Below, piece after piece: positions 3,621 through 56,219 of a stretch of 64,000 bases of DNA; positions within the stretch are counted from its first letter, which is position 1, and every line of letters begins with the position of its first letter. The position numbers and the translations under genes were made by a program. The notes under the pieces are model-generated. The model saw nothing but the letters and a program-made list of their open reading frames with translations, searched no databases and had not been told where the DNA came from. Source of the stretch: an uncultured bacterium (GTDB taxonomy: Bacteria; Patescibacteriota; Minisyncoccia; Phycocordibacterales; Phycocordibacteraceae). The stretch covers positions 208,682 through 272,681 of the forward strand of contig CAVXAH010000001.1 of NCBI GenBank assembly GCA_963759775.1, written 5' to 3'.

Positions 3621-4976
3621 CTAGTTGTTGGCGAGGAAGTCTATGTTCTGCTGGATGCCCGCAACTTTCGCCATAACTTGGTTTGCATAGGTCTGTCCAA
3701 GCGTTGCCCACCGGCCACCGGCATAATATTTCGCGGCGGCCGTGTGCTCGGCCGTATAGCCGCCCGCACCAGCGCCAAGGTCAGAAAGGAATACTCCCAT
3801 CGCCGCAATCGCGTCCTGCGGATTCCAAGGATTTGCGACTGCTACGCCGCGAGCGGCGGCGATGCGTCCGGCGATACTCGCCCAGGTGGAGGGGATGAAT
3901 TGTGCAGGTCCCATCGCGCCGCCGTACCCACCTGCGCTCGCTATAGGGCATGAGACGACTTGATAATGCGGATCAAACCCGAGTTTAGAAGCGAGGGCAA
4001 GGAATGGAGGCACATCGCGAGTTGGGTGCATCACTGCGGCAAATGCCGTACCGGTATTTTTGCCGATGCCCGCACCCGTCACGTCGTTCGTGAGATAACA
4101 CTGCCCTACGTTTGCCCCCAGATTTGATTCCTGCGTGAGGATCGCAAGCACGAACGCGGGGTCAACGCCCGTGGACTTCTCGGCCGCCTGCGCATATTTA
4201 AGCGCATCGCCGAACTGGATGGCGGCGGCATCGCGAAGCGGAAAGAGTGCGGCGCGTATCGCGGCAGCCTTCGCCTGGTTCGCAGCGAGGACTTTCTTGT
4301 ACTCCGTTTCCTGATTGGTCGTAATAGCGAGCAGTTGCTGTTTTACAACCTGAGCCTCAGCAACCTTCTGCTTTTTGGTTTGTATGTCGTACTTGGCATC
4401 CGTCACCTTGTTCTGTGTTTGCGTGAGGACGGCTCTTTCACTTTCTGTTTTTGCTTTCGTCGCTCGTATGTTGGAGAAGAGCACTTGCATTTCGCCCTTG
4501 ATAGATACGAAAGCGTCAACATCTGCGAAAAAAGAGGAGAAGTCGTCAGATGAAAGCGCCACTTCAACGAGAGAATAATCTTCAAGCTGGCTCTGCTGAC
4601 GAAGCATAGACGCAAGCGAGGCGTGCCCTTGAACGATACGATTCTCAAGCTGTCCGATAACCTGGGTTTTAGTGACTATCTGGGAACCAAGTTGCTTCAG
4701 TTTTATGTTCTGGGCATCTATTTGCGCTTGCGCCTGTTTTATTTGCGCGTTTAGTGCCGTGACGTCCCCCGTGAGCGTATTCTTCTTTGCGCGGGTCGCA
4801 TCAAGCACCACCTGTTGCGCCGCTATCTCTTTCTGAAGCTGGTCGTATTGCGCTTGCAAATGGGCACGCTCTTGTGGAGTGAGTTCCTCGGCGTGAGCAT
4901 AGGGTTGTGCGGTGAGCACCGTACTTGCCGCGCCAACGACAACGAGCACAATGAGCATGGAGAGGATCTGCTTCAT
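3621..4976 (-). CDS. secreted coiled-coil protein with MltB/SLT_2-like lytic transglycosylase domain
   Basis: Signal-like N-terminus, a long Gln/Ala-rich coiled coil, then ILTQESNLG and GAMGPAQFIPSTW motifs. Confidence 0.7.
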   Translation of the reverse strand: MKQILSMLIVLVVVGAASTVLTAQPYAHAEELTPQERAHLQAQYDQLQKEIAAQQVVLDATRAKKNTLTGDVTALNAQIKQAQAQIDAQNIKLKQLGSQIVTKTQVIGQLENRIVQGHASLASMLRQQSQLEDYSLVEVALSSDDFSSFFADVDAFVSIKGEMQVLFSNIRATKAKTESERAVLTQTQNKVTDAKYDIQTKKQKVAEAQVVKQQLLAITTNQETEYKKVLAANQAKAAAIRAALFPLRDAAAIQFGDALKYAQAAEKSTGVDPAFVLAILTQESNLGANVGQCYLTNDVTGAGIGKNTGTAFAAVMHPTRDVPPFLALASKLGFDPHYQVVSCPIASAGGYGGAMGPAQFIPSTWASIAGRIAAARGVAVANPWNPQDAIAAMGVFLSDLGAGAGGYTAEHTAAAKYYAGGRWATLGQTYANQVMAKVAGIQQNIDFLANN

Positions 4977-5056: not shown

Positions 5057-5740
5057 TTACTTCTTGCCTTCCGGCTTTTTCGCATCAGCCGCTGCTGCAG
5101 GAGCTGCTCCTGCCTCACCCTCCACCTCTTCCTTGCCCTTCTTCTCAACCTCAATAGCCGAGAGGTCAACGGCAACGGGAGCTTCCACTACCTCCTCCTT
5201 CACTTCCTGAGCAAGCGCAATCACCTCTTCAAGAGCGGTGTTGAGCGTGACACCTGCAGGGAGCACAATATCCTTCGCGCGAATCTGGTCGCCAATCTTC
5301 TGAATCAAAGAAATATCCACTTTGAGCTCGTGTGGGAGCGCAGCTGCTTCTGCCTCAATCTCCACTTCGTGGAGCACTTTCACGATGTTTGCACCGTCTT
5401 TCGCCGCCGGAGACTCGCCCACGAACACAAGTGGCACTTTCACCTCAACTTTCGCGCCCTTCTCAATTGCATAAAAATCAGCGTGGCGGGGAACGCTAGT
5501 CACTGGATGATGATCAACATCGTGGATAAGAACCTGGAGCGGAGCGGCTTCAACCCCCGAAAGCTCAATGATAGAAGATTCACCTGCGACTCGTAGCATT
5601 TTCTCAAATGCCTTAAGCGGAAGCACGATAGAAACCGCCTTTTGTTTGGGACCATAGACGACAGCGGGCAAAGACCCCGCTCGGCGAAGTGCCGAGAGCG
5701 AAGAAGCAGTATCCCGCTTGGTTGCGGTGAGCGTATGCAT
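5057..5740 (-). CDS. rplY: 50S ribosomal protein bL25 / general stress protein Ctc
   Basis: MHTLTATKRD..LPAVVYGPK..HDVDHHPVTSVPRHADF with a charged tail. Start taken at ATG 5738-5740 rather than 5920. Confidence 0.85.
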   Translation of the reverse strand: MHTLTATKRDTASSLSALRRAGSLPAVVYGPKQKAVSIVLPLKAFEKMLRVAGESSIIELSGVEAAPLQVLIHDVDHHPVTSVPRHADFYAIEKGAKVEVKVPLVFVGESPAAKDGANIVKVLHEVEIEAEAAALPHELKVDISLIQKIGDQIRAKDIVLPAGVTLNTALEEVIALAQEVKEEVVEAPVAVDLSAIEVEKKGKEEVEGEAGAAPAAAADAKKPEGKK

Positions 5741-5998
5741 AGTGAAAGGAGTATGCCTGAAACACCTAAAAAATTCAAGCCCTGTCAGACACTTTGGCAT
5801 TGTCGTGTTTGTGCCACCACGAGTTTTGGTAGCAAACCCGAAATTGCTCAATTTATTATTGGTTTGGAACAGACCAGCTACACGACAAGTGGCACGATGC
5901 CAAAGTGTACGCCGGGGCAAGCGGGCTAAGTTCCCGCGAGGGCGGCAGAGACTTTCTTAAGACGAGCAAGAAATGCGGCTCTCGCGGCGGGAACGTTC

Positions 5999-6925
5999 TC
6001 ACTCTTCCCTTTCCAGACAGTAAGTGCCTCTTCCTGCAGCGCACGGGCATACGAAAATGTGAGCGGCCATGGCGCGCTTGAGGCAAGAGCGGCGCACGTA
6101 ATCGCCTGTAGGTTCTAGAGTTGCTTGGTCTGGGGTTTGTCCGCCTGAAAGAAACACAATGCCCGCCACCTCCTTTGGAACCGTCTTCATGAGTACCGCG
6201 ACCGTGTCCTCCGCCACCTCTTCCGGCGTATCTTTCTTTCCGCTTTCGCTTCCAGAAATCGCCATTGCGGTTTTGAGTATCACTCCCGGGAGGTCTACCG
6301 CCTGCTCATGCAGTACGTGAAAAAGTGCGCCGAGCGTTTCTTGCAAGACTTCCTTCGCACGAGCGCGCGAGTGCCTACCCGAAAGAAGTACTTCCGGCTC
6401 AAGGATAGGCACGAGACCTGCCTTTTGTGCCTCTTTCGCATAGCTTGCGAGACGTTTTACGTTTTCAAGAATCGCAGCAGAAGTGGGCAGCTTGTCGCCT
6501 TCAATACGAATGACTGCGCGCCATTTTGTAAACACCGCCCCCCGGTCGGCAAAGGTTTTGAGCCGCTCCGGCAAACCAAGGAGTCCTTTGGTAATAAGCT
6601 CATTCGCGCTTTCCAAAAAGGGCTCCGTACCCTCATCTACTTTTATACCTGGGGCAATACCGCGCTGTGCGAGAGATGTGGTAAAAAGCATGCCGTCCTC
6701 GCCTTCTTGTACAAATGTTTCTGCAAATAAAATGACCCCTGAAAGGTAGTCCGGAACGCCTGGCGCGTTTAAGAAAAGTTCGCGAAACTTCTTGCGCATT
6801 TCAAGCGTCGTATCAATACCATAGGAAGCAAGACGCTTGTCAGCAGAAGACACGCTCTCGTCGGCTGCGAGAATGCCTTTCCCGGGAGATACGAGGGCAC
6901 GTGCGCGCTCTCTAAGGTCCATCAT
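5999..6925 (-). CDS. fba: fructose-bisphosphate aldolase, class I (frame lost near 6115; homologous C-terminus continues to 5926)
   Basis: GKGILAADESVSSADKRL and FLSGGQ are class I aldolase motifs. After ...DQATL the conserved NLQAIT..SSAPWPLTFSYARALQEEAL continues in another frame to TAG 5926-5928. Confidence 0.85.
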   Translation of the reverse strand: MMDLRERARALVSPGKGILAADESVSSADKRLASYGIDTTLEMRKKFRELFLNAPGVPDYLSGVILFAETFVQEGEDGMLFTTSLAQRGIAPGIKVDEGTEPFLESANELITKGLLGLPERLKTFADRGAVFTKWRAVIRIEGDKLPTSAAILENVKRLASYAKEAQKAGLVPILEPEVLLSGRHSRARAKEVLQETLGALFHVLHEQAVDLPGVILKTAMAISGSESGKKDTPEEVAEDTVAVLMKTVPKEVAGIVFLSGGQTPDQATLEPTGDYVRRSCLKRAMAAHIFVCPCAAGRGTYCLEREE

Positions 6926-6958
6926 GCGTGGATTTTAGCATGCTAAAATCCACGCATG
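6923..6958. promoter_or_regulatory. 36-bp perfect palindrome, candidate divergent leaderless promoter/operator between fba and the PfkB kinase
   Basis: Sequence is CATGCGTGGATTTTAGCATGCTAAAATCCACGCATG. Each arm reads TGcTAAAAT-N6-ATG. The left CAT is the fba start codon. Confidence 0.6.
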
Positions 6959-6961
6959 GAT

Positions 6962-7078
6962 CCCGTTAGAAGCCGCGGTCGCTGTGGTAAAATCTCGGAT
7001 ATCATATGAAACTGAGCATTTTTAGTAGCTGTGCGTTAACCAAGTTGAGTCGCCTGACCGCGACCTGCTTCTAACGGG
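6962..7078 (+). mobile_element. ORF-less miniature inverted-repeat element (CCCGTTAGA family)
   Basis: Termini are CCCGTTAGAAGC / GCTTCTAACGGG, with sub-terminal complementarity. It is flanked by direct repeats ATGGA (6956-6960, 7079-7083). Confidence 0.6.
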
Positions 7079-8074
7079 ATGGAACAATCGCTTGATTTCG
7101 TCGCCATTGGCGACACCGCCGTTGACGAATTTATCCGGCTCAAGGACGCCACGGTGCATTGCGATATAAACAGTGAAAACTGCACCATTTCTATGAAGTG
7201 GGGCGATAAAATCCCTTTTGAGTATTCGGTGTTGGTAGCGGGTGTTGGAAACGCCGCAAACGCGGCGGTTGCCGCCGCGCGCCTTGGGCTCCGTGCGGGA
7301 TTCGTCTCAAACGTAGGTGATGACTCCTACGGAAAGGAGATTCTCACCGCCTTTGCGCGGGAAGGTGTAGACGCGAGCGGTGTCGCGGTGAATGCAGGTA
7401 TGGTGACGAACCATCACTACGTGCTTTGGTATGAGTCAGAACGTACGATTCTCATTAAACACGAAGACTACCCGTACGCGCTCCCGAAAAATTTTACTGC
7501 GCCCCGCTGGATTTATCTCTCGTCCGCTGGCGCACGCTCCGAAGCTTTTCATAGTGAGCTTGCGACGTGGCTTGTTGCACACCCCGAAACGAAACTCGCC
7601 TTTCAACCGGGCACCTTCCAAATGAAAATAGGAAAAGCAAAACTCGCCGGGCTTTATGCACGAACTGATCTTCTCGCGGTAAACAAAGAGGAAGCGGAGC
7701 GCATTTTGGAGCGCGACAAAGACGAGATTACAAATCTGCTCCGAGATCTCCACGCGCTTGGACCAAAAATCGTACTCATCACTGATGGCCCAAAGGGCGC
7801 GTATGCCTATGACGGAAAAGATATGTTCACGGTACCCATGTATCCCGACCCAAAACCCGCCTTTGAGCGGACCGGCGCGGGAGATGCCTGCACCTCTACC
7901 ATCGTTGCGGCACTCGCGCTCGGAAAGCCACTTGCCGAAGCGCTTCTGTGGGGACCAGTGAATTCAATGTCAGTCGTGCAAGAAATCGGCGCACAAAAAG
8001 GGCTTCTCGCTCGCCCTGCACTTGAAAAATATCTTGAAAACGCTCCAAAAACGTATACGGTGAGTCCGTTTTAG
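7079..8074 (+). CDS. PfkB-family carbohydrate kinase
   Basis: GVGNAANAAVAAARLG and C-terminal TGAGDACTSTIVAAL are PfkB signatures. Confidence 0.8.
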   Translation: MEQSLDFVAIGDTAVDEFIRLKDATVHCDINSENCTISMKWGDKIPFEYSVLVAGVGNAANAAVAAARLGLRAGFVSNVGDDSYGKEILTAFAREGVDASGVAVNAGMVTNHHYVLWYESERTILIKHEDYPYALPKNFTAPRWIYLSSAGARSEAFHSELATWLVAHPETKLAFQPGTFQMKIGKAKLAGLYARTDLLAVNKEEAERILERDKDEITNLLRDLHALGPKIVLITDGPKGAYAYDGKDMFTVPMYPDPKPAFERTGAGDACTSTIVAALALGKPLAEALLWGPVNSMSVVQEIGAQKGLLARPALEKYLENAPKTYTVSPF

Positions 8075-8223
8075 AACTCATTTCAAAACCGGGGCACGAA
8101 CGGGGCGTTGCATCCGAGGGGGTCGCGAAGTTGGGCGGTGCGAGCGTTTCAGGTATTTTTTCAGCAGAAAAAATACCGTACCAGAGGAGGCAGCGCCTCG
8201 TGAGTGGTTTTGAAACGAGTTCT
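8073..8223 (+). repeat. structured intergenic repeat, family A, copy 1
   Basis: 18-bp outer inverted repeat (AGAACTCATTTCAAAACC / GGTTTTGAAACGAGTTCT). Conserved core is GCGAGCGTTTCAG-GGTATTTTT-TCAGCAGA-AAAAATACC-GTACCAGAGGAGG. Related copies lie at 22834-22936 and 25686-25818. Confidence 0.6.
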
Positions 8224-8392
8224 AGTTCTTGAGAAGTTCGCGGTATTCGCCGTAGTGAGAATCAACCGTGTCGTGGGAGTCTGCGTACGCGACACGAATG
8301 ATGAGAAGTGCCGCTCCTCCACCGACAATCGTGATGGCCAGAACTGCCATGTATGCGTTTATTTTCCTTGCGAGTGACATTCTTGGGGGCAT
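8222..8392 (-). CDS. small membrane protein (56 aa, below the ORF-track cutoff)
   Basis: MPPRMSLARKINAYMAVLAITIVGGGAALLIIRVAYADSHDTVDSHYGEYRELLKN has one TM helix. The ORF starts 2 nt after the transketolase stop. Confidence 0.4.
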   Translation of the reverse strand: MPPRMSLARKINAYMAVLAITIVGGGAALLIIRVAYADSHDTVDSHYGEYRELLKN

Positions 8393-8394
8393 AC

Positions 8395-9384
8395 TTATTT
8401 TACAAATGAACGTGCCGCGTCCACAATCGCCGGCGCATTTAGCTTGTAGTGAGCAAGAAGTTCATCGGGGGTTCCTGACTGCCCAAACTCGTTATGAAGC
8501 CCCATAAACCGCATGGGAACAGGATAAAGCTCCGCGAGCGCTTCAGCAACCGCGCTACCAAAGCCCCCAGCAACCTGATGCTCTTCAATAGTGATGACGC
8601 GGCCCGCGCGTTTCGCCGCATGCACCACTGCATCTGTATCAAGTGGCTTCACGGTTGGCACGTGAAGCACGATTGACCCTATGCCTTCTGCGGCAAGCGC
8701 GCGGGCCGCAAGCAACACTTCGTAGGAGAGCGCGCCGGTAGAGAGCAGGGCGACGCGCGGCTTTTTGTCTTCAAAGAGAATTGTCGCTTTCCCAATTGAA
8801 AATGAGGTCTCTGGAGTGGTAAAGACAGGTGTTGCCGCGCGTCCAAACCGCAGATAGGTGGGCGTCTTGGTTTTCGCGGCCGCGAGAACTGCTTTCCTCG
8901 CTTCCTCAGCATCCCCGGGCACGATTACGGTCATGTTGGGAAGCGCGCGCATCATGGCAATGTCTTCAAGCATTTGGTGTGTCGCGCCGTCGGGACCCAC
9001 CGAAACGCCCGCGTGCATTCCGCATATTTTTACGGGCACGTCGTTTAGTGCGATTGTCGTGCGGATCTGTTCGTAATTCCTGCCCGGAGAAAACGCCGCA
9101 TAGGACGCAATAAAAGGCACCTTCCCTATCGCGGCCATACCTGCTGCTACGGTCGCCATGTTCTGCTCAGCGACGCCCATTTCAACAAAGCGTTCTGGAA
9201 ACTCTTTTTCAAAGTCCTCCGCGCGCGTAGACTCTTTAAGGTCTGCACACAACACCACAACTTGTGGGTCCGCCTTCCCCGCCTCCACCACACCCTTCCC
9301 AAACCCGTCGCGCGTCGGCTTTTTTTCAATATCGTCCGCAAAGACTTTTGCGGAAAGTTTTGCGTGTGGGTTAAGCATATTCAT
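8395..9384 (-). CDS. transketolase, C-terminal half (pyrimidine-binding + C-terminal domains)
   Basis: VAEQNMATVAAGMA and GATHQMLEDIAMMRALPNM are transketolase middle-domain motifs. Confidence 0.85.
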   Translation of the reverse strand: MNMLNPHAKLSAKVFADDIEKKPTRDGFGKGVVEAGKADPQVVVLCADLKESTRAEDFEKEFPERFVEMGVAEQNMATVAAGMAAIGKVPFIASYAAFSPGRNYEQIRTTIALNDVPVKICGMHAGVSVGPDGATHQMLEDIAMMRALPNMTVIVPGDAEEARKAVLAAAKTKTPTYLRFGRAATPVFTTPETSFSIGKATILFEDKKPRVALLSTGALSYEVLLAARALAAEGIGSIVLHVPTVKPLDTDAVVHAAKRAGRVITIEEHQVAGGFGSAVAEALAELYPVPMRFMGLHNEFGQSGTPDELLAHYKLNAPAIVDAARSFVK

Positions 9385-26812: not shown

Positions 26813-26848
26813 GAAAACAATACTACCATATATGGTAGTATTGTTTTC
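26813..26848. promoter_or_regulatory. 36-bp perfect palindrome abutting the yerC-like start codon (candidate operator / bidirectional extended -10 promoter)
   Basis: Sequence is GAAAACAATACTACCATATATGGTAGTATTGTTTTC. It reads TGgTAGTAT-N7-ATG(26849). The core AATACTACCATATATGGTAGTATT recurs at 27304-27345 and 50972-50995. Confidence 0.6.
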
Positions 26849-27280
26849 ATGAAAAAGAAAATAAATGACTTATCGGAAGCCGAACGCATCAAAACACTGG
26901 ACGCGCTCTACACCGCCGCAAGCAGTGTGCATACTCGTGCTGACATGAAAGCCTTCTTACGAGATCTGCTCACGGTGAGTGAGCGTGTGATGCTTGGGCG
27001 ACGTATTCTTATCGCACGCCTTTTGCTCCAAGGAGAGACGCGAGATGCTATACGCACGCGAACTGGTGCAGGGTACGCCACCATAGAGAGAGTGGGACAG
27101 TGGCTTGAAGACCAAATGCCTGGGTATGAGCAGGCTATTACGGGCATGGAGCGCGAATTTAAGACGCGGAGATTTTATATGCACTACAGCGCGCGCGAGG
27201 TATTGCGACGCCTTAAGAAACGCTACCCTCTCCACTTTCTGCTCTTCCCCGAACCATCTTCAAAAAAGAACCGCTCTTAA
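26849..27280 (+). CDS. TrpR-like YerC/YecD family DNA-binding protein
   Basis: LRDLLTVSERVMLGRRILIARLLLQGETRDAIRTRTGAGYATIERV matches the YerC/YecD Trp-repressor-like family. Confidence 0.75.
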   Translation: MKKKINDLSEAERIKTLDALYTAASSVHTRADMKAFLRDLLTVSERVMLGRRILIARLLLQGETRDAIRTRTGAGYATIERVGQWLEDQMPGYEQAITGMEREFKTRRFYMHYSAREVLRRLKKRYPLHFLLFPEPSSKKNRS

Positions 27281-27303: not shown

Positions 27304-27345
27304 CAAAAGTAGAATACTACCATATATGGTAGTATTCTACTTTTG
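27304..27345. promoter_or_regulatory. 42-bp perfect palindrome between convergent yerC-like and secA genes (operator copy and/or terminator)
   Basis: Sequence is CAAAAGTAGAATACTACCATATATGGTAGTATTCTACTTTTG, with the same 24-bp core as at 26813-26848. Confidence 0.55.
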
Positions 27346-39869: not shown

Positions 39870-41006
39870 CTAAAAAGTTTTGTGTAAATCATCCGCGATG
39901 CGGGACGGAATATTTCCTTGTTCAGCGAGGTGCGCCCGGGCTTTCGGTTCGGCGTGCATAGGAAGAGATAAACGAACCTCAGTATCTTCAATAAGTCCGA
40001 CAATGTGGTACGAGAGCGCGGTTGGGTCTGCAACGGGCGCAGAAAGCACGTCCTCGTATCCCTGGAATACCTCGCCCACAATACCGACATCTGTGGTTAT
40101 GATGGGAATTTTCGCGAGTGCGGCTTCAAGAAGAGTCCGTCCGTATCCTTCGTATGCGCTTGCCTGGATGTACGCCTGGGCGCTTTGCATCATTCCCCAC
40201 GCCGTTTCCGCGGGAAGCCAACCCTTCACGAATATCACGCGGTCGGAGAGTCCAAGACGCCGCGCCATGCGCTCGAGCCGTCCTCGCTCCCGCCCTTCCC
40301 CAACAACGACGAGACCGATCATTGGGTAATGCCCTGCAACAAGCTTGAGCGCCGCAAGTATGTCCTCAATGCGTTTCTCGGGCTCCAGCCTGCCTACGGT
40401 GATGAGCGTAAACGTAAAGGGGCGAGTAGGAAGTGGAGCCTTCGGAGGAAGTGTGTAGCCAACTGCAACGGGAATAATCGACGGGTCCGGGATATTTTTT
40501 CCATAGCGCGCAATAAGAGAATCTTTGACGCGTTTTGAAACGACGCGGATACCATTTGCTTTGGGAAGCACCCGATCGGCGATTTTTCGGCGGAAGCGAT
40601 TTAAAAGCGGCATATGCACGCGAGGGGAGCGCCAATTCCCGCTTCGCACGAACCAGGGTGACAGAAAATCCGTATGCACTTGAATGTGAAGTTTTGCATT
40701 CGTCCCCTCAACAGCCTTAAGCGCCGCGAGCCCGTGTTCAAATGGGTCCTGCGCGGACACTATTTCTATATGTTCGGTGTCTATAAGGACGCGCGCGAGC
40801 TTTGCGAGCGCGCGAACTCGAAAGAACTTTGATGCAAACACCGGGTGCAAGTGAAGGGTTCCTTCATCAATACGTAGTGTCCGAGGAGGTGCTGAGGAAA
40901 GAATATGGAGCTCCCCTATTGCCGCGGCGTACGTGCGCATACGCGCGCGCGCAGAGCTTGCGGCATCAAAAATTGAGGGGTCGTTTGAGATAAAGAGGAC
41001 CTTCAT
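39870..41006 (-). CDS. glycosyltransferase, GT4/group 1
   Basis: EGYGRTLLEAALAKIPIITTDVGIVGEV. The true start is MKVLFISND at ATG 41004-41006. The track extension to 41084 reads through the adjacent element. Confidence 0.8.
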   Translation of the reverse strand: MKVLFISNDPSIFDAASSARARMRTYAAAIGELHILSSAPPRTLRIDEGTLHLHPVFASKFFRVRALAKLARVLIDTEHIEIVSAQDPFEHGLAALKAVEGTNAKLHIQVHTDFLSPWFVRSGNWRSPRVHMPLLNRFRRKIADRVLPKANGIRVVSKRVKDSLIARYGKNIPDPSIIPVAVGYTLPPKAPLPTRPFTFTLITVGRLEPEKRIEDILAALKLVAGHYPMIGLVVVGEGRERGRLERMARRLGLSDRVIFVKGWLPAETAWGMMQSAQAYIQASAYEGYGRTLLEAALAKIPIITTDVGIVGEVFQGYEDVLSAPVADPTALSYHIVGLIEDTEVRLSLPMHAEPKARAHLAEQGNIPSRIADDLHKTF

Positions 41007-41117
41007 CCCGTTAGAAATAGCAGACGCCTGCATCCCCTCAGTATGTAGCATGTTAGGTTTTTGTGACATGATTTTGTCGTACAAGCACTAGAGCGTCTGC
41101 GTCTTATTTCTAACGGG
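41007..41117 (-). mobile_element. ORF-less miniature inverted-repeat element (CCCGTTAGA family)
   Basis: The left arm reads CCCGTTAGAAATAGCAGACGC. The right end is GCGTCTGCGTCTTATTTCTAACGGG on the plus strand (reverse complement CCCGTTAGAAATAAGACGCAGACGC). Flanking direct repeat is TTCAT (41002-41006, 41119-41123), i.e. ATGAA on the coding strand. Confidence 0.65.
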
Positions 41118-41119
41118 AT

Positions 41120-42205
41120 TCATGGTGCTTGGAGCGTCTCTACCGTTGCGGTAAGCATGTTTTCAACAGAATACCGTTTGGCAGACTCCTCTGCACGTGC
41201 CGAGAGGTCCCTACGTATTTGGTCGTCTCCAAGCACTTTTCTAAGGGCGTTTTGCAGTGCGACGGAGTCTTCATGCGGGAAAAGGATTCCCATCTTTTCG
41301 TCACTGATGACTTCCGGGTTTCCGCCAACATTTGTCGCGACGACTGGTACGCCGAGCGAAACTGCTTCAATAAGGAGATGCGAGAGTCCTTCATATGCAG
41401 AATTGAGAACGAATACGTCCGCGCCCTTCATGACTGCAAGCGTATCTCCATGACTCAATACTCCAGTGAAGACGGCGCGACCCGGAAGCGCGTGCTTCGC
41501 TTTTGTCTCAAGCGAAGCACGGTCCGGACCATCACCCACGATCGCGAGGGACGCGCCCGGAATGCTCGAGACCGCGTGAACGACACCCTCTATACCTTTC
41601 CAGGGCACCAGTCGACCAGCTGTGACCACGAGCGGTCGCGGCAAAGCCGCGACCGCCTCCGGCACGTTTCCAACTTCTTCCGTCCTGACCGCATTGTAGA
41701 TAACCGTAATCTTGTCGCTTGGTACTCCCCACGCTTCCACCACACCCTTTAGGTATTTGCTTGGCACGATGACCTTGTGTGCCGCTTCTGCAGTGCGGTT
41801 TTGTATTTTTTGAAGTAGACGCACTTGAAACGACGGCTGTTTTGACTTCACGAATTCGTCGAGAGGCATTGAAACACCAAAACGCTGTCTCCCCTGCTCC
41901 CACGCATAGTCGCCCACAATCTTTACCACAAACGGTTTCCCCGCCCGCTTCGCCGCGTGCATTCCCGGGAGACCAACTGAAACGGGGTCAAGCGCCATAA
42001 CAAGGTCAGCGGTGCGTGCGGCACGGAGCACTCGCCGAAAATATACATAATGACGAAACAGTTTTGGGAAATGACGTACGTCGGAAAATTTCACGAGTTC
42101 AACATGAACGCCGCGCTTTGGCAATTCCTCCGCGAGAATCTTCGCGTAGGTTGCCGGGCCGCCAATTTCAGGCGGATACAAGGGTGTCGCGATGACGAGC
42201 TTCAT
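41120..42205 (-). CDS. glycosyltransferase, GT4/group 1
   Basis: EGLSHLLIEAVSLGVPVVATNVGGNPEVI. The true start is MKLVIATPLYPPEIGGPATY at ATG 42203-42205. The track extension to 42355 is antisense GIY-YIG sequence. Confidence 0.8.
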   Translation of the reverse strand: MKLVIATPLYPPEIGGPATYAKILAEELPKRGVHVELVKFSDVRHFPKLFRHYVYFRRVLRAARTADLVMALDPVSVGLPGMHAAKRAGKPFVVKIVGDYAWEQGRQRFGVSMPLDEFVKSKQPSFQVRLLQKIQNRTAEAAHKVIVPSKYLKGVVEAWGVPSDKITVIYNAVRTEEVGNVPEAVAALPRPLVVTAGRLVPWKGIEGVVHAVSSIPGASLAIVGDGPDRASLETKAKHALPGRAVFTGVLSHGDTLAVMKGADVFVLNSAYEGLSHLLIEAVSLGVPVVATNVGGNPEVISDEKMGILFPHEDSVALQNALRKVLGDDQIRRDLSARAEESAKRYSVENMLTATVETLQAP

Positions 42206-42486
42206 CCCGTTAGAGATAGGAAACGCTTTAGCCGGTTTTTGAGATACCGTTTGCCCGTCCCGGTTTTCAGGTACTTCTCTCGAGCTTCCGCGTCCTCCAG
42301 GTTGTGACATGCTTCGTAATATATCAGTTCGTACGGACGGTGCTTTTTTGTCCAACCGCGAGACCCTTTTTGATGCTGGCTGAAGCGTTTCCGTAAATCA
42401 TTTGTGACCCCCGTGTACCAATAATCGCTCGTGAGGCTTTTGATGACGTACACATAACACATTTTGTTATCTCTAACGGGATTCAT
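42202..42486 (-). CDS. GIY-YIG nuclease family protein (UPF0213/COG2827 type)
   Basis: MCYVYVIKSLTSDYWYTGVTNDLRKRFSQHQKG...YYEAC...AREKYLK matches the GIY-YIG pattern. The conserved start is ATG 42460-42462. The upstream in-frame ATG 42484-42486 lies in the duplicated target. Confidence 0.85.
   Translation of the reverse strand: MNPVRDNKMCYVYVIKSLTSDYWYTGVTNDLRKRFSQHQKGSRGWTKKHRPYELIYYEACHNLEDAEAREKYLKTGTGKRYLKNRLKRFLSLTG
42206..42480 (-). mobile_element. 275-bp inverted-repeat-bounded GIY-YIG cassette, copy 1
   Basis: Termini are CCCGTTAGAGATA / TATCTCTAACGGG. Flanking direct repeat is TTCAT (42201-42205, 42482-42486). It is identical to 43630-43904 except at 2 positions. Confidence 0.7.
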
Positions 42487-42495
42487 AACCCTATT

Positions 42496-43629
42496 CTAAC
42501 GGCTTACAAACAGCTGGTCGAATATCCTACGCATCGTAGAACTGATCAGGTTCCAATCATATTTTTCTGTAACCATCTTGAGTGCATTTGCCGTAACCTC
42601 GTTTGCTTTCTCCGGCCGCGCCAAAATATCTTTCACCGCTTCAGCAATCTGCTCCGGTGAGTTTTTATCAACCGCCCAACCAGTCGTCGCCTTATCGGGA
42701 TTGCGTTTTTCGTCATATAGAAAATCTGCGATGCCTCCCTCTTGAGTTGTTATCACCGGAAGTCCGGCGGCCATTGCTTCCATAAACGAAACCCCGAAGC
42801 CTTCGGTCCTTGAGGGGCGAATAAAGATGTCGGCCGCATGCAAATACTGAGGAATACCAGCTCGGTCGACATGACCGAGAAACTCCACACGATTTTCTAT
42901 CTTGAGTTTTTTCACTAACGCCTTGAGTGAACCCTCTTCCGGCCCACTGCCGAGTATTTGAAATTGCACCGAATCAGGCAACAGACGGAGAGCCTTTATA
43001 ACATCGTCAATCGCATTTTTATGCACAAGTCTTGAGGTCGTAATAAGTACGGTCTCCCTGTGTGAAATTGGTGCCCCTGCAAACTTCGTTACATCGACTC
43101 CGTTCGGCACGAGGTGAATTGCTCCTTTGAAATGCCGTGCGCGTGCCCACTTGGCGAGATAATTTGAAAGCGGCAGTACCACCTTCGCCTTAGTAAACGC
43201 TTGCGCAAAAAGTGGCCAGAGCGGCAACATCGTACGCTCAATATGCGCTATAGGGTCCCCTTCTTGGAGACTGAGCGCATACGGTACCTCCGGATGAAAG
43301 GTGTGAAAATGTGCGGCAGGAATGCCTGATGAGTGCGCCATCATAGCCCACGCCGCATCAAAATGATGTTCTTTATGGAGTGCTGCTGCCTTGCGAGCCG
43401 CTGTGTATTGAAAAAAAAGTTTGCTCAACCTTCCGTTGCTACTTCCGATACGGTGTACAAACACATTGCCGATTTTTTCTTCACGTTTCTCCAAGACGGA
43501 GAAACGCATGGTCACCATGTGAAATTCAATTTCCTTCGGATCAATCCGGTCCGTAACTTCTTTGATCGCCACTTCAGCCCCGCCCACGTGTGGATAGTAT
43601 GCGAGAGAGAAAATAAGCACGCGCTTCAT
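42496..43629 (-). CDS. glycosyltransferase, GT4/group 1
   Basis: EGFGVSFMEAMAAGLPVITTQEGGIADFL. The true start is MKRVLIFSLAYYPHVGGAEV at ATG 43627-43629. Confidence 0.8.
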   Translation of the reverse strand: MKRVLIFSLAYYPHVGGAEVAIKEVTDRIDPKEIEFHMVTMRFSVLEKREEKIGNVFVHRIGSSNGRLSKLFFQYTAARKAAALHKEHHFDAAWAMMAHSSGIPAAHFHTFHPEVPYALSLQEGDPIAHIERTMLPLWPLFAQAFTKAKVVLPLSNYLAKWARARHFKGAIHLVPNGVDVTKFAGAPISHRETVLITTSRLVHKNAIDDVIKALRLLPDSVQFQILGSGPEEGSLKALVKKLKIENRVEFLGHVDRAGIPQYLHAADIFIRPSRTEGFGVSFMEAMAAGLPVITTQEGGIADFLYDEKRNPDKATTGWAVDKNSPEQIAEAVKDILARPEKANEVTANALKMVTEKYDWNLISSTMRRIFDQLFVSR

Positions 43630-43910
43630 CCCGTTAGAGATAGGAAACGCTTCAGGCGGTTTTTGAGATACCGTTTGCCCGTCCCGGTTTTCAGGTACTT
43701 CTCTCGAGCTTCCGCGTCCTCCAGGTTGTGACATGCTTCGTAATATATCAGTTCGTACGGACGGTGCTTTTTTGTCCAACCGCGAGACCCTTTTTGATGC
43801 TGGCTGAAGCGTTTCCGTAAATCATTTGTGACCCCCGTGTACCAATAATCGCTCGTGAGGCTTTTGATGACGTACACATAACACATTTTGTTATCTCTAA
43901 CGGGACTCAT
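43626..43910 (-). CDS. GIY-YIG nuclease family protein (second copy)
   Basis: Same protein as 42202..42486 from codon 9 onward. It differs only at residue 2 (S for N), which lies outside the inverted repeat. Confidence 0.85.
   Translation of the reverse strand: MSPVRDNKMCYVYVIKSLTSDYWYTGVTNDLRKRFSQHQKGSRGWTKKHRPYELIYYEACHNLEDAEAREKYLKTGTGKRYLKNRLKRFLSLTG
43630..43904 (-). mobile_element. 275-bp inverted-repeat-bounded GIY-YIG cassette, copy 2
   Basis: Same termini as copy 1. Flanks are CTTCAT / ACTCAT (ATGA on the coding strand). The upstream gene's stop TGA and the downstream gene's ATG both lie in the flanks. Confidence 0.7.
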
Positions 43911-50518: not shown

Positions 50519-51811
50519 CTATTGTTTTAGTACTAAATTATCTGCAATCTTGTATATATCTCCAGCGCCCATGGTCATGACAGCATCACCCTCTTTTGGT
50601 TCATTCCCAAATAAACGTTCAATTTCTTCAAAGGTGGACGCTGATGCATTTTGACCGTTGCCGCGAATACGCTCTGCAAGCAGTGCGCTTGAAATAGATT
50701 TGTCTGGCTTTTCGCGCGCAGCATAAATGGGGGCGATCACAACTTCATCAGTGTCAACAAATGCAGCCGCAAAGTCCTCAAACAAATCACGCGTGCGACT
50801 GTAGAGGTGAGGGTGAAATGCGACGAACACTTTTCCTTTCGTCTGCGCACGGAGCGCTTTGAGTGTTTCTTTTATTGCCGTCGGGTGGTGTGCGTAGTCG
50901 TCATACACCTCTGCCCCGTTCTTCGTCTTCCCTTTGTATTCAAAACGTCGCCATGTGCCTTGAAAGTCAGCAATACTACCATATATGGTAGTATTCTCGA
51001 CCTTGGGGAGAATAAAACGTGCGGCGGCAAGTGCGGCGCGCGCGTTCATGCGGTTAAATTCGCCCGGGAGTTTGAGTGGAGGCACTTCCTCTTTGGTGTA
51101 GTCGATGATGTGGGCCCGCGCCTCGCGGAGCACTTCTTTGATGTTTGGATTATTTGGATCGGTAACGATCGCACCGTCTGCGGGTACGCGGGCAACGGCT
51201 TTTCGGAAGGTGTCTTGGAGGGCGACGAGCGAGGGAAACCAGTCCGTGTGGTCCCACTCAAGATTCGTAATAACGAGAATGTGCGGCGAGAGCTCAAGAA
51301 GATGGTCTCTGTATTCGCATGCCTCAACCACAAAGAGGTCGTTTGCTCCATCTGCAAGATAGTTACTCCCGAAATCTTTCACGATTGAACCTATGATGGC
51401 AGTTGGGTGCGCCCCCGCGTCTTTCAAAATTTTGGCGAGCATGCCGGTTGTAGTCGTCTTCCCATGCGTCCCCGAGATGGCGATGGTACGCTTCCCTGCC
51501 GAGACTTTTCCAAGCATCCCGAAATATGAAAGCTGTGGAATGCCGAGCTCTTTTGCGCGAGCGCGCTCGGGGTTGCTTTCCGGTACTGCGTCGCTGTACA
51601 CCACTGCCTCGACACCTGACGGAACATTTTCCTTTTTCTGTCCTATCTTGACCTTGATACCCTTGGATTCAAGAAGAACCGTTGTAGCAGACGCTTCGCG
51701 ATCAGAACCGGAAACAGTCGCACCTTCGTGTGCGAACAGCTGCGCAAGTGCCGACATACCGATACCACCGATGCCGACAAAATGAATTCGCTTTGGGTGT
51801 TTATACGCCAT
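50519..51811 (-). CDS. murC: UDP-N-acetylmuramate--L-alanine ligase
   Basis: IHFVGIGGIGMSALAQLF and ISGTHGKTTTTGM. Confidence 0.9.
   Translation of the reverse strand: MAYKHPKRIHFVGIGGIGMSALAQLFAHEGATVSGSDREASATTVLLESKGIKVKIGQKKENVPSGVEAVVYSDAVPESNPERARAKELGIPQLSYFGMLGKVSAGKRTIAISGTHGKTTTTGMLAKILKDAGAHPTAIIGSIVKDFGSNYLADGANDLFVVEACEYRDHLLELSPHILVITNLEWDHTDWFPSLVALQDTFRKAVARVPADGAIVTDPNNPNIKEVLREARAHIIDYTKEEVPPLKLPGEFNRMNARAALAAARFILPKVENTTIYGSIADFQGTWRRFEYKGKTKNGAEVYDDYAHHPTAIKETLKALRAQTKGKVFVAFHPHLYSRTRDLFEDFAAAFVDTDEVVIAPIYAAREKPDKSISSALLAERIRGNGQNASASTFEEIERLFGNEPKEGDAVMTMGAGDIYKIADNLVLKQ
50972..50995. promoter_or_regulatory. 24-bp perfect palindrome inside murC, identical to the yerC-flanking core
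   Basis: AATACTACCATATATGGTAGTATT encodes NTTIYGSI of MurC. Confidence 0.55.

Positions 51812-54726: not shown

Positions 54727-56217
<1,491 letters not shown>

Positions 56218-56219
<2 letters not shown>

Follow-up and report, generated by a model that had tools for sequence, protein, structure and literature searches.

Why should a perfect 36-bp palindrome lie between two divergent genes and end, on both sides, in a start codon? The question arises at positions 6923..6958 of a 64,000-nt stretch of DNA, hereafter the window, from an uncultured bacterium of the Phycocordibacteraceae (Patescibacteriota; contig CAVXAH010000001.1, positions 208,682 to 272,681), where the palindrome separates a class I fructose-bisphosphate aldolase gene (fba) on the minus strand from a PfkB-family sugar kinase gene (pfkB) on the plus strand. 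An earlier note on this DNA had offered two interpretations, namely a pair of back-to-back promoters for leaderless messenger RNAs (mRNAs) and a binding site for a dimeric regulator that couples both genes. Our analysis points to the first of these: the 36-mer is probably a minimal bidirectional promoter, composed of two complete, abutting and outward-facing promoters, whose arms would have become identical by copying rather than for a dimeric regulator.

Two probable abutting promoters between fba and pfkB

The palindrome, present on both strands, reads CATGCGTGGATTTTAGCATGCTAAAATCCACGCATG, i.e., CATGCGTGGATTTTAGCA followed directly by TGCTAAAATCCACGCATG. It consists of two perfect 18-nt arms (half-site GCGTGGATTTTAGCA) with no spacer between them, and each arm comprises the extended -10 box TGCTAAAAT, then 6 nt and then ATG, all of which agrees with the description in the earlier note. 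On the minus strand, the box of the fba promoter (6932..6940) is followed by the spacer, or discriminator, CCACGC (6926..6931) and by the fba start codon (6923..6925, CAT on the plus strand), on which a leaderless fba transcript is predicted to start. On the plus strand, the box of the ancestral pfkB promoter (6941..6949) is followed by the same spacer (6950..6955) and by an ATG at 6956-6958. The -10 hexamers at 6932-6937 and 6944-6949, both TAAAAT and in agreement with TATAAT at 5 of 6 positions, do not overlap; the predicted transcription starts at 6925 and 6956 are 31 bp apart, and 30 bp separate the start codons of fba and ancestral pfkB. The longest arm of a zero-spacer palindrome was at most 13 nt in 30 dinucleotide-preserving shuffles of the window, and a search of the window for the 18-mer arm with up to three mismatches returned only the two palindrome arms (0.05 expected).

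Both ends of the palindrome are gene starts. The CAT at 6923-6925 is the first ATG of the aldolase open reading frame (ORF) and aligns with residue 1 of its orthologues, which bears out its assignment as the fba start. The right-hand ATG had been taken for the start of the kinase gene before an insertion, and this also proved correct: the present pfkB ATG lies at 7079, behind a 119-bp element, and removal in silico of the element together with one copy of its TGGA target duplication yields CCACGC-ATGGAACAATCGCTTGATTTC, in agreement with the pfkB start ATGGAACAACCCCTCGATTTC of L191, the closest relative with available DNA (PfkB 83% identical). Today the ATG at 6956 merely opens a 17-codon ORF (MDPVRSRGRCGKISDII and a stop codon; plus strand, 6956..7009) that runs into the element.

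The genome in which the palindrome lies appears to use such promoters widely. Its aldolase and kinase are nearest to those of metagenome-assembled genomes of the Paceibacteria/Kaiserbacteria type within the candidate phyla radiation (CPR), with about 70% identity for fba and up to 85% for PfkB. The 16S ribosomal RNA (rRNA) gene (minus strand, 54727..56218; 3' end at 54727..54770) has a 3' tail that reads GGAATAATTCCAAA (also ...GCTGCTCGTGGAATAATTCCAAA and ...CGTGGAATAATTCCAAA), the Escherichia coli counterpart being GGATCACCTCCTTA, and the canonical anti-Shine-Dalgarno sequence CCTCC is missing from this tail. Just one of 39 gene starts in the window is preceded by GGAG, GAGG or AGGA, and 15 of the 39 have a TAnnnT hexamer 5-9 nt before the ATG. 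The full motif TGnTAnnnT-N5-8-ATG opens ORFs of at least 80 codons at 10 of its 13 sites in the window. When 19 such promoters of the window were aligned on the hexamer, the positions of the TG extension held T in 12 and G in 15 cases, and no -35 signal emerged from the alignment. A scan for canonical -35/-10 promoters likewise found none near the palindrome, where the sequence at 17-bp spacing (ATCATG) is not -35-like. By these motif counts, an extended -10 box placed for transcription to start on the start codon is the normal promoter of this genome. We found no description of leaderless mRNAs in CPR/Patescibacteria in the literature searched.

The same arrangement is found in relatives. Divergent fba and pfkB genes are adjacent, with 10-136 bp between them, in about 33 Paceibacteria genomes. 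We fetched 80 genome loci with an aldolase gene and tabulated 30 that have both boxes (L192 offered 15 nt of upstream sequence only). TGnTAnnnT is present upstream of both ATGs in all 30. The spacer ahead of the fba ATG measures 6 nt, as in the window, in 19 of the 30 loci and 7 nt in a further 7, so that 26 of 30 have 6-7 nt. Ahead of the pfkB ATG, 11 loci have a spacer of 6 nt, 10 have one of 9 nt and 4 have one of 7 nt; 26 of the 30 are in the range of 6-9 nt. Bases at the 'n' positions and in the spacers drift freely across lineages, so that conservation is confined to the consensus of the sigma factor and to how far it lies from the ATG. Back-to-back minimal leaderless promoters, as predicted from this motif, are routine in this bacterial group; perfect symmetry alone is unusual.

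The distance between the two boxes ranges from -8 to 113 bp across loci. The boxes overlap in L023 (distance -8) and abut (distance 0) in five lineages, represented by the window, L013, L024, L040 and L085/L174. Among these, L024 reads CAT-GAGAAT-ATCCTAGCA/TGCTAAAAT-GGTGAA-ATG and L085 reads CAT-AGCGCGC-ATTTTAGCA/TGCTAAAAT-AGGTCT-ATG, the slash marking the junction of the boxes, and L191 reads CAT-GCGCGA-ATTCTAGCA-(36-bp hairpin insert)-TGCTATTCT-CATCCT-ATGGAACAA. Outside the consensus the arms are asymmetric in L191, L085, L024, L013 and L040, so that the symmetry of the 36-mer is not conserved. The idea of a functional symmetric 36-mer fails on this point, and the promoter part of the earlier interpretation stands, as a prediction with strong support from the missing anti-Shine-Dalgarno sequence, the motifs at gene starts, the enriched TG without a -35 signal and the conserved spacing.

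We propose that the unit would work as follows. RNA polymerase holoenzyme with the housekeeping sigma factor would bind either arm through contacts to the TG and the -10 hexamer, with no need for a -35 element, melt the DNA and start at the A of the ATG, giving mRNAs that begin with 5'-AUG and that ribosomes would translate without a Shine-Dalgarno interaction. As the boxes touch and the predicted starts are 31 bp apart, the simultaneous presence of two polymerases seems sterically implausible, and identical arms should have equal intrinsic firing in both directions. One arm would have been copied onto the other by a strand switch or by hairpin-templated repair at a quasi-palindrome, and their identity may have persisted because promoters that match are either tolerated or at an advantage. 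The 119-bp mobile element, which targeted the start codon, has since separated the rightward promoter from pfkB. The start sites, the mutually exclusive occupancy, the balanced output and the copying mechanism are all what we infer from these features. Apart from its ATGs the palindrome is not transcribed in this scheme, which makes roles at the RNA level unlikely, and the folding of the single-stranded palindrome into a hairpin bears on the proposed copying and not on gene expression.

Such a promoter has known counterparts. A leaderless transcriptome has reportedly been described for Mycobacterium tuberculosis, in work attributed to Cortes et al. 2013. The leaderless promoters of Actinobacteria and Deinococcus-Thermus share with those described here a -10 hexamer about 6-7 nt before the start codon, with TAnnnT just upstream of the ATG at the first genes of operons, and the lack of both a 5' untranslated region (UTR) and a Shine-Dalgarno sequence; the present case differs in that it concerns Paceibacteria/CPR, has a TG extension without a detectable -35 element, and lacks the anti-Shine-Dalgarno sequence altogether. 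With the extended -10 (TGn) promoters of E. coli and Gram-positive bacteria it has in common a TG one base before a near-consensus hexamer and, as predicted here, a dispensable -35 element, yet these promoters form a minority class there and are apparently the default of the genome here.

Warman et al. (bioRxiv 10.1101/2020.01.31.928960) describe bidirectional promoters that arise from the symmetry of the -10 element; their -10 hexamers, on opposite strands, overlap, and the distance between starts is 7-25 bp, with a mode of 18. The palindrome resembles this class in its compact, pseudo-symmetric sequence and in the predicted divergent transcription and exclusion of one polymerase by the other. 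It differs, however, in that separate extended -10 boxes abut, with predicted starts 31 bp apart, in that both mRNAs are predicted to be leaderless, and in that its symmetry is perfect over 36 bp. The overlapping -10 type itself occurs in the relative L023.

The palindrome is thus no new kind of mechanism and would represent the perfectly symmetric case of a known kind of promoter. It is nevertheless a compact natural control region for two genes, with 30 bp between the start codons and no -35 element, 5' UTR or ribosome-binding site. Taken with the lack of an anti-Shine-Dalgarno sequence, the locus would document a CPR lineage that depends largely on leaderless mRNAs made from promoters of the extended -10 type. 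This could be used for the annotation of start codons in CPR genomes and for promoter design in the few genetically tractable Patescibacteria.

Why the arms are identical

Function at the promoter and start codon sets 8 of the 18 positions of an arm (TG, TA, T and ATG) and leaves the other ten free. All ten are identical between the arms of the window. The maximum was 7 of 10 among 189 other pairs of promoter arms in the window and 8 of 10 among 870 pairs of arms taken from different loci. Over the 30 loci, arms match at 4.0 free positions on average within a locus and at 2.98 between loci (permutation p about 1e-4), and three loci have at least eight matching free positions (p about 0.002). 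One of them, L017, carries CATAAAAAAATTGTATCACG-CT-CGTGATACAATTTTTTTATG, a 20+20 palindrome that ends in both start codons and matches at 10 of 10 free positions; its arm, TGATACAATTTTTTT, is unrelated in sequence to that of the window, TGCTAAAATCCACGC. In L015, 16 of 18 arm positions, including 8 of the 10 free ones, are identical. The recurrence of symmetry with different sequences, and the lack of conservation of the orthologous bases, argue against a conserved dimeric regulator and for a homogenisation of the arms.

This pattern points to copying templated by the palindrome, or to selection for promoters that match, as the cause of the homogenisation. The perfection of quasi-palindromes by a template switch during replication is a known mutational route in the E. 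coli literature. Applied to two similar promoters placed back to back, it would yield a perfect palindrome in a single step, which fits the lineage-specific and recurrent identity of the arms; it is a mutational mechanism and not a functional class, and we put it forward as a proposal. A count made by eye gives a weak hint at the direction of copying: both window arms agree with the fba arm of L191 at 12 of 15 positions and with its pfkB arm at 8, as if the fba arm had served as the template for the pfkB side. We tentatively consider that this is a case of concerted evolution, in which one promoter-plus-start-codon arm overwrote the other in independent Paceibacteria lineages (the window, L017 and, nearly, L015), and we regard this wider claim as possible, with a good deal less confidence than the promoter assignment itself. 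If true, the overwriting of arms would be a recurrent one-step way to create or repair the promoter and start codon of a neighbouring gene, and it might be kept by selection for a matched, mutually exclusive expression of fba and pfkB.

Several points weigh against the reading of the 36-mer as a bidirectional promoter with copied arms. All the evidence comes from sequence, and the DNA comparison extends to L191, one relative being closer still (PfkB 85% identical). The likeness of arms within loci is partly inflated by base composition, as the spacers of L017 and L015 are T-rich, and the strand-switch origin is plausible from the literature on quasi-palindromes and is a proposal here. Our search for further copies covered 64 kb of a genome of about 595 kb, which may leave room for a small regulon. 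Finally, with fba frameshifted and pfkB displaced from its promoter, selection may have ceased to act on the unit in this genome.

An operator lying across both promoters, through which a dimeric transcription factor would control aldolase and sugar kinase together, would account for the dyad symmetry over ten positions that RNA polymerase does not require, perfect at 18+18, and a site over the -10 box and the start is the classic position of a repressor. Other long perfect palindromes stand beside a Trp-repressor-like gene in the window and make long palindromic operators plausible in this organism. The palindrome indeed resembles repressor operators such as the trp operator of TrpR and the lac operator of LacI, whose dyad symmetry is centred over the core promoter, but here no regulator gene adjoins the fba/pfkB pair, and the 64-kb window holds no second site. 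None of the relatives with the fba/pfkB pair, among them L191 and those with abutting boxes, has preserved the symmetric bases of spacer and hexamer, and the symmetric lineages use unrelated sequences (L017 versus the window), an ill fit for a conserved regulator. Moreover, a scan of metagenomes with the 18-bp core ATTTTAGCATGCTAAAAT found 110 sites, nearly all in unrelated contexts; only L085/L174 among them is the orthologous fba/pfkB site, and none contains the exact 36-mer. The symmetric core is accounted for by two binding sites of the sigma factor. We consider an operator unlikely, and the coupling of both genes by a dimeric regulator, as envisaged in the earlier note, is not borne out.

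A second alternative grants importance to the -10 boxes only and regards the symmetry as a neutral and recent accident, a single hairpin-templated or inverted-duplication event, with the right arm now a decaying relic since the insertion cut it off from pfkB. The symmetry is lineage-specific, the aldolase gene is frameshifted, and the rightward promoter is now predicted to drive the 17-codon ORF and an element RNA that folds at -53 kcal/mol and pairs the pfkB AUG, all of which would agree with such a relic. Against this, both arms are still perfect and show no decay since the copying or the insertion, and arm identity recurs in independent lineages beyond the permutation expectation, which suggests a recurrent bias or selection. 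This explanation, to which we give as little credit as to the operator, overlaps largely with the copied-arm reading and differs from it on selection only.

A last group of alternatives, very unlikely in our view, places the palindrome among features of DNA structure or mobile DNA instead of promoters: it would be a cruciform, a recombination site, a pair of DnaA boxes, the end of a transposon, the site recognised by the neighbouring GIY-YIG-type element, a terminator or an assembly artefact. The palindrome does form a 16-bp hairpin as single-stranded DNA (-17.5 kcal/mol, z = -7), an element did insert 2 nt from its end, and its arms contain the DnaA-box-core-like GTGGAT/ATCCAC. Against these readings, it has no other copies in the window and no target duplication at its flanks, and the other three copies of the element and those in other genomes are at non-palindromic sites that share only ATGRR. 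As the genes on its two sides differ and their synteny is conserved, a fold-back assembly artefact is rejected too.

Individual identities from known classes were rejected as well. Only 6 of the 9 positions of the DnaA box TTATCCACA are matched, and a search that allowed one mismatch did not return the site. An intrinsic terminator is at odds with genes that diverge from the palindrome and with the lack of a following T-run, and a terminator scan found none of relevance. The palindrome is no end of a mobile element or of a miniature inverted-repeat transposable element (MITE), since it is single-copy in the window and without a flanking target duplication, unlike the adjacent element. The controlling inverted repeat of chaperone expression (CIRCE) has the form TTAGCACTC-N9-GAGTGCTAA, and both its spacing and its half-site are wrong for the palindrome. 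A search of 5500..8500 against Rfam (E <=1) returned nothing except a chance fluoride-riboswitch match inside pfkB.

The flanking genes and an element at start codons

The aldolase ORF (minus strand, 5999..6925; Pfam PF00274, E=1.4e-85) carries a +1 frameshift near 6115-6119, with CTAG in place of GAC in the relative L191, and the last ~61 residues of the aldolase, including PWPLTFSYARALQ, are encoded in another frame at 5932..6114. The frameshift marks either a pseudogene or an assembly error. The kinase ORF (plus strand, 7079..8074; PF00294) owes its present ATG to the end of the element together with the target duplication. A PfkB of identical sequence occurs in ERR12037361, and the SRR14005100 contig has an intergenic region of 40 bp. 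The rightward promoter is predicted to transcribe the inserted element now, and the fba/pfkB pair may be impaired in this genome.

The 119-bp insertion (plus strand, 6961..7079) is MITE-like and a non-autonomous member of a GIY-YIG family. It has 13-bp terminal inverted repeats at 6961-6973 and 7067-7079 (TCCCGTTAGAAGC and GCTTCTAACGGGA), a 4-bp direct target duplication, TGGA, at 6957-6960 and 7080-7083, and an internal TGGTAAAAT at 6985-6993. Its inverted-repeat sequence had no match in 192 fetched loci.

Four copies of this element family, whose terminal inverted repeats are TCCCGTTAGAGA...TCTCTAACGGGA and whose target duplication is the 4-bp TGRR, are present in the window (6961..7079, 41006..41118, 42205..42481 and 43629..43905), and further copies lie in L193 (1501-1785), L194 (1501-1788) and L200 (1501-1785). 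The two long copies of the window encode an 86-aa GIY-YIG protein, and the two short ones are MITE-like. All copies are placed precisely at start codons. The frame set by the host ATG and two target bases continues through the left repeat (MNPVRD...) up to the GIY-YIG ORF; the right repeat supplies the codons for ...SLTG-stop and restores the host ATG as GGG-ATG-A, where stop and start codons overlap (GGGATGA). More than 3600 homologues of the protein were found at E <=1e-5, and the source names among the best matches are those of Patescibacteria/CPR. The homologues are 86 aa or 94-95 aa long and conserve the repeat-encoded termini, the M[N/S/I/G]PVRD extension and the C-terminal RFLSLTG, across the family. 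In other CPR genomes the same inverted repeats, with a 4-bp TGAA or TGAG duplication, occur at leaderless ATGs or at ATGA stop/start junctions. The copy at 41006..41118 inserted precisely into an ATGA stop/start overlap that had linked two glycosyltransferase genes (41002..41005 and 41119..41122); in L194 the same kind of element occupies the ATGA junction between scpB and a peptidase S11 gene.

We found no description of a GIY-YIG element at start codons in the literature searched, and this element may be a more novel object than the palindrome. The leaderless extended -10 design predicted for these genomes would explain how a mobile element that targets start codons can thrive in them.

Insertions also occur between the two promoters in relatives. 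Hairpin-forming inserts of 36-113 bp with inverted repeats of their own lie exactly between the fba and pfkB -10 boxes in several of them, at 2950-2985 in L191 and at about 3870-3990 in L007, L014 and L022 (e.g., TCCCCAGC...GCTGGGGA and CCGGACATTTTGGAGC...GCTCCAAAATGTCCGG). Insertions appear to recur at the centre of the fba/pfkB bidirectional promoter. In L026 and L030, a perfect DnaA-box 9-mer, TGTGGATAA, lies between the two promoters (3960-3968 in both); near matches to it occur in L031 and L025 of the same clade, and it is missing from the palindrome of the window.

Other palindromes and repeats

A metagenome contig, L169, consists of one palindrome with arms of about 7.2 kb and is probably a fold-back assembly artefact. 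Arrays of ATTTTAGCACG repeats occur in L081, L093, L110, L116 and others. Another recurring palindrome, GTGCTAAT-ATTTTAGCATGCTAAAAT-ATTAGCAC, unrelated to that of the window, is found in the metagenome contigs L083, L087, L143, L154, L172, L173 and L189 (53-66% GC).

The window itself contains a second family of perfect zero-spacer palindromes, at 26813..26848 (36 bp), 27304..27345 (42 bp) and 50972..50995 (24 bp), which share the core AATACTACCATATATGGTAGTATT and contain TGGTAGTAT in each arm. The third lies inside a MurC-like ORF. The first two flank the Trp-repressor-like gene (26849..27280, PF01371), and the upstream one ends at the ATG of this gene. Judged from this placement, the family looks like a set of operators for the Trp-repressor-like regulator.

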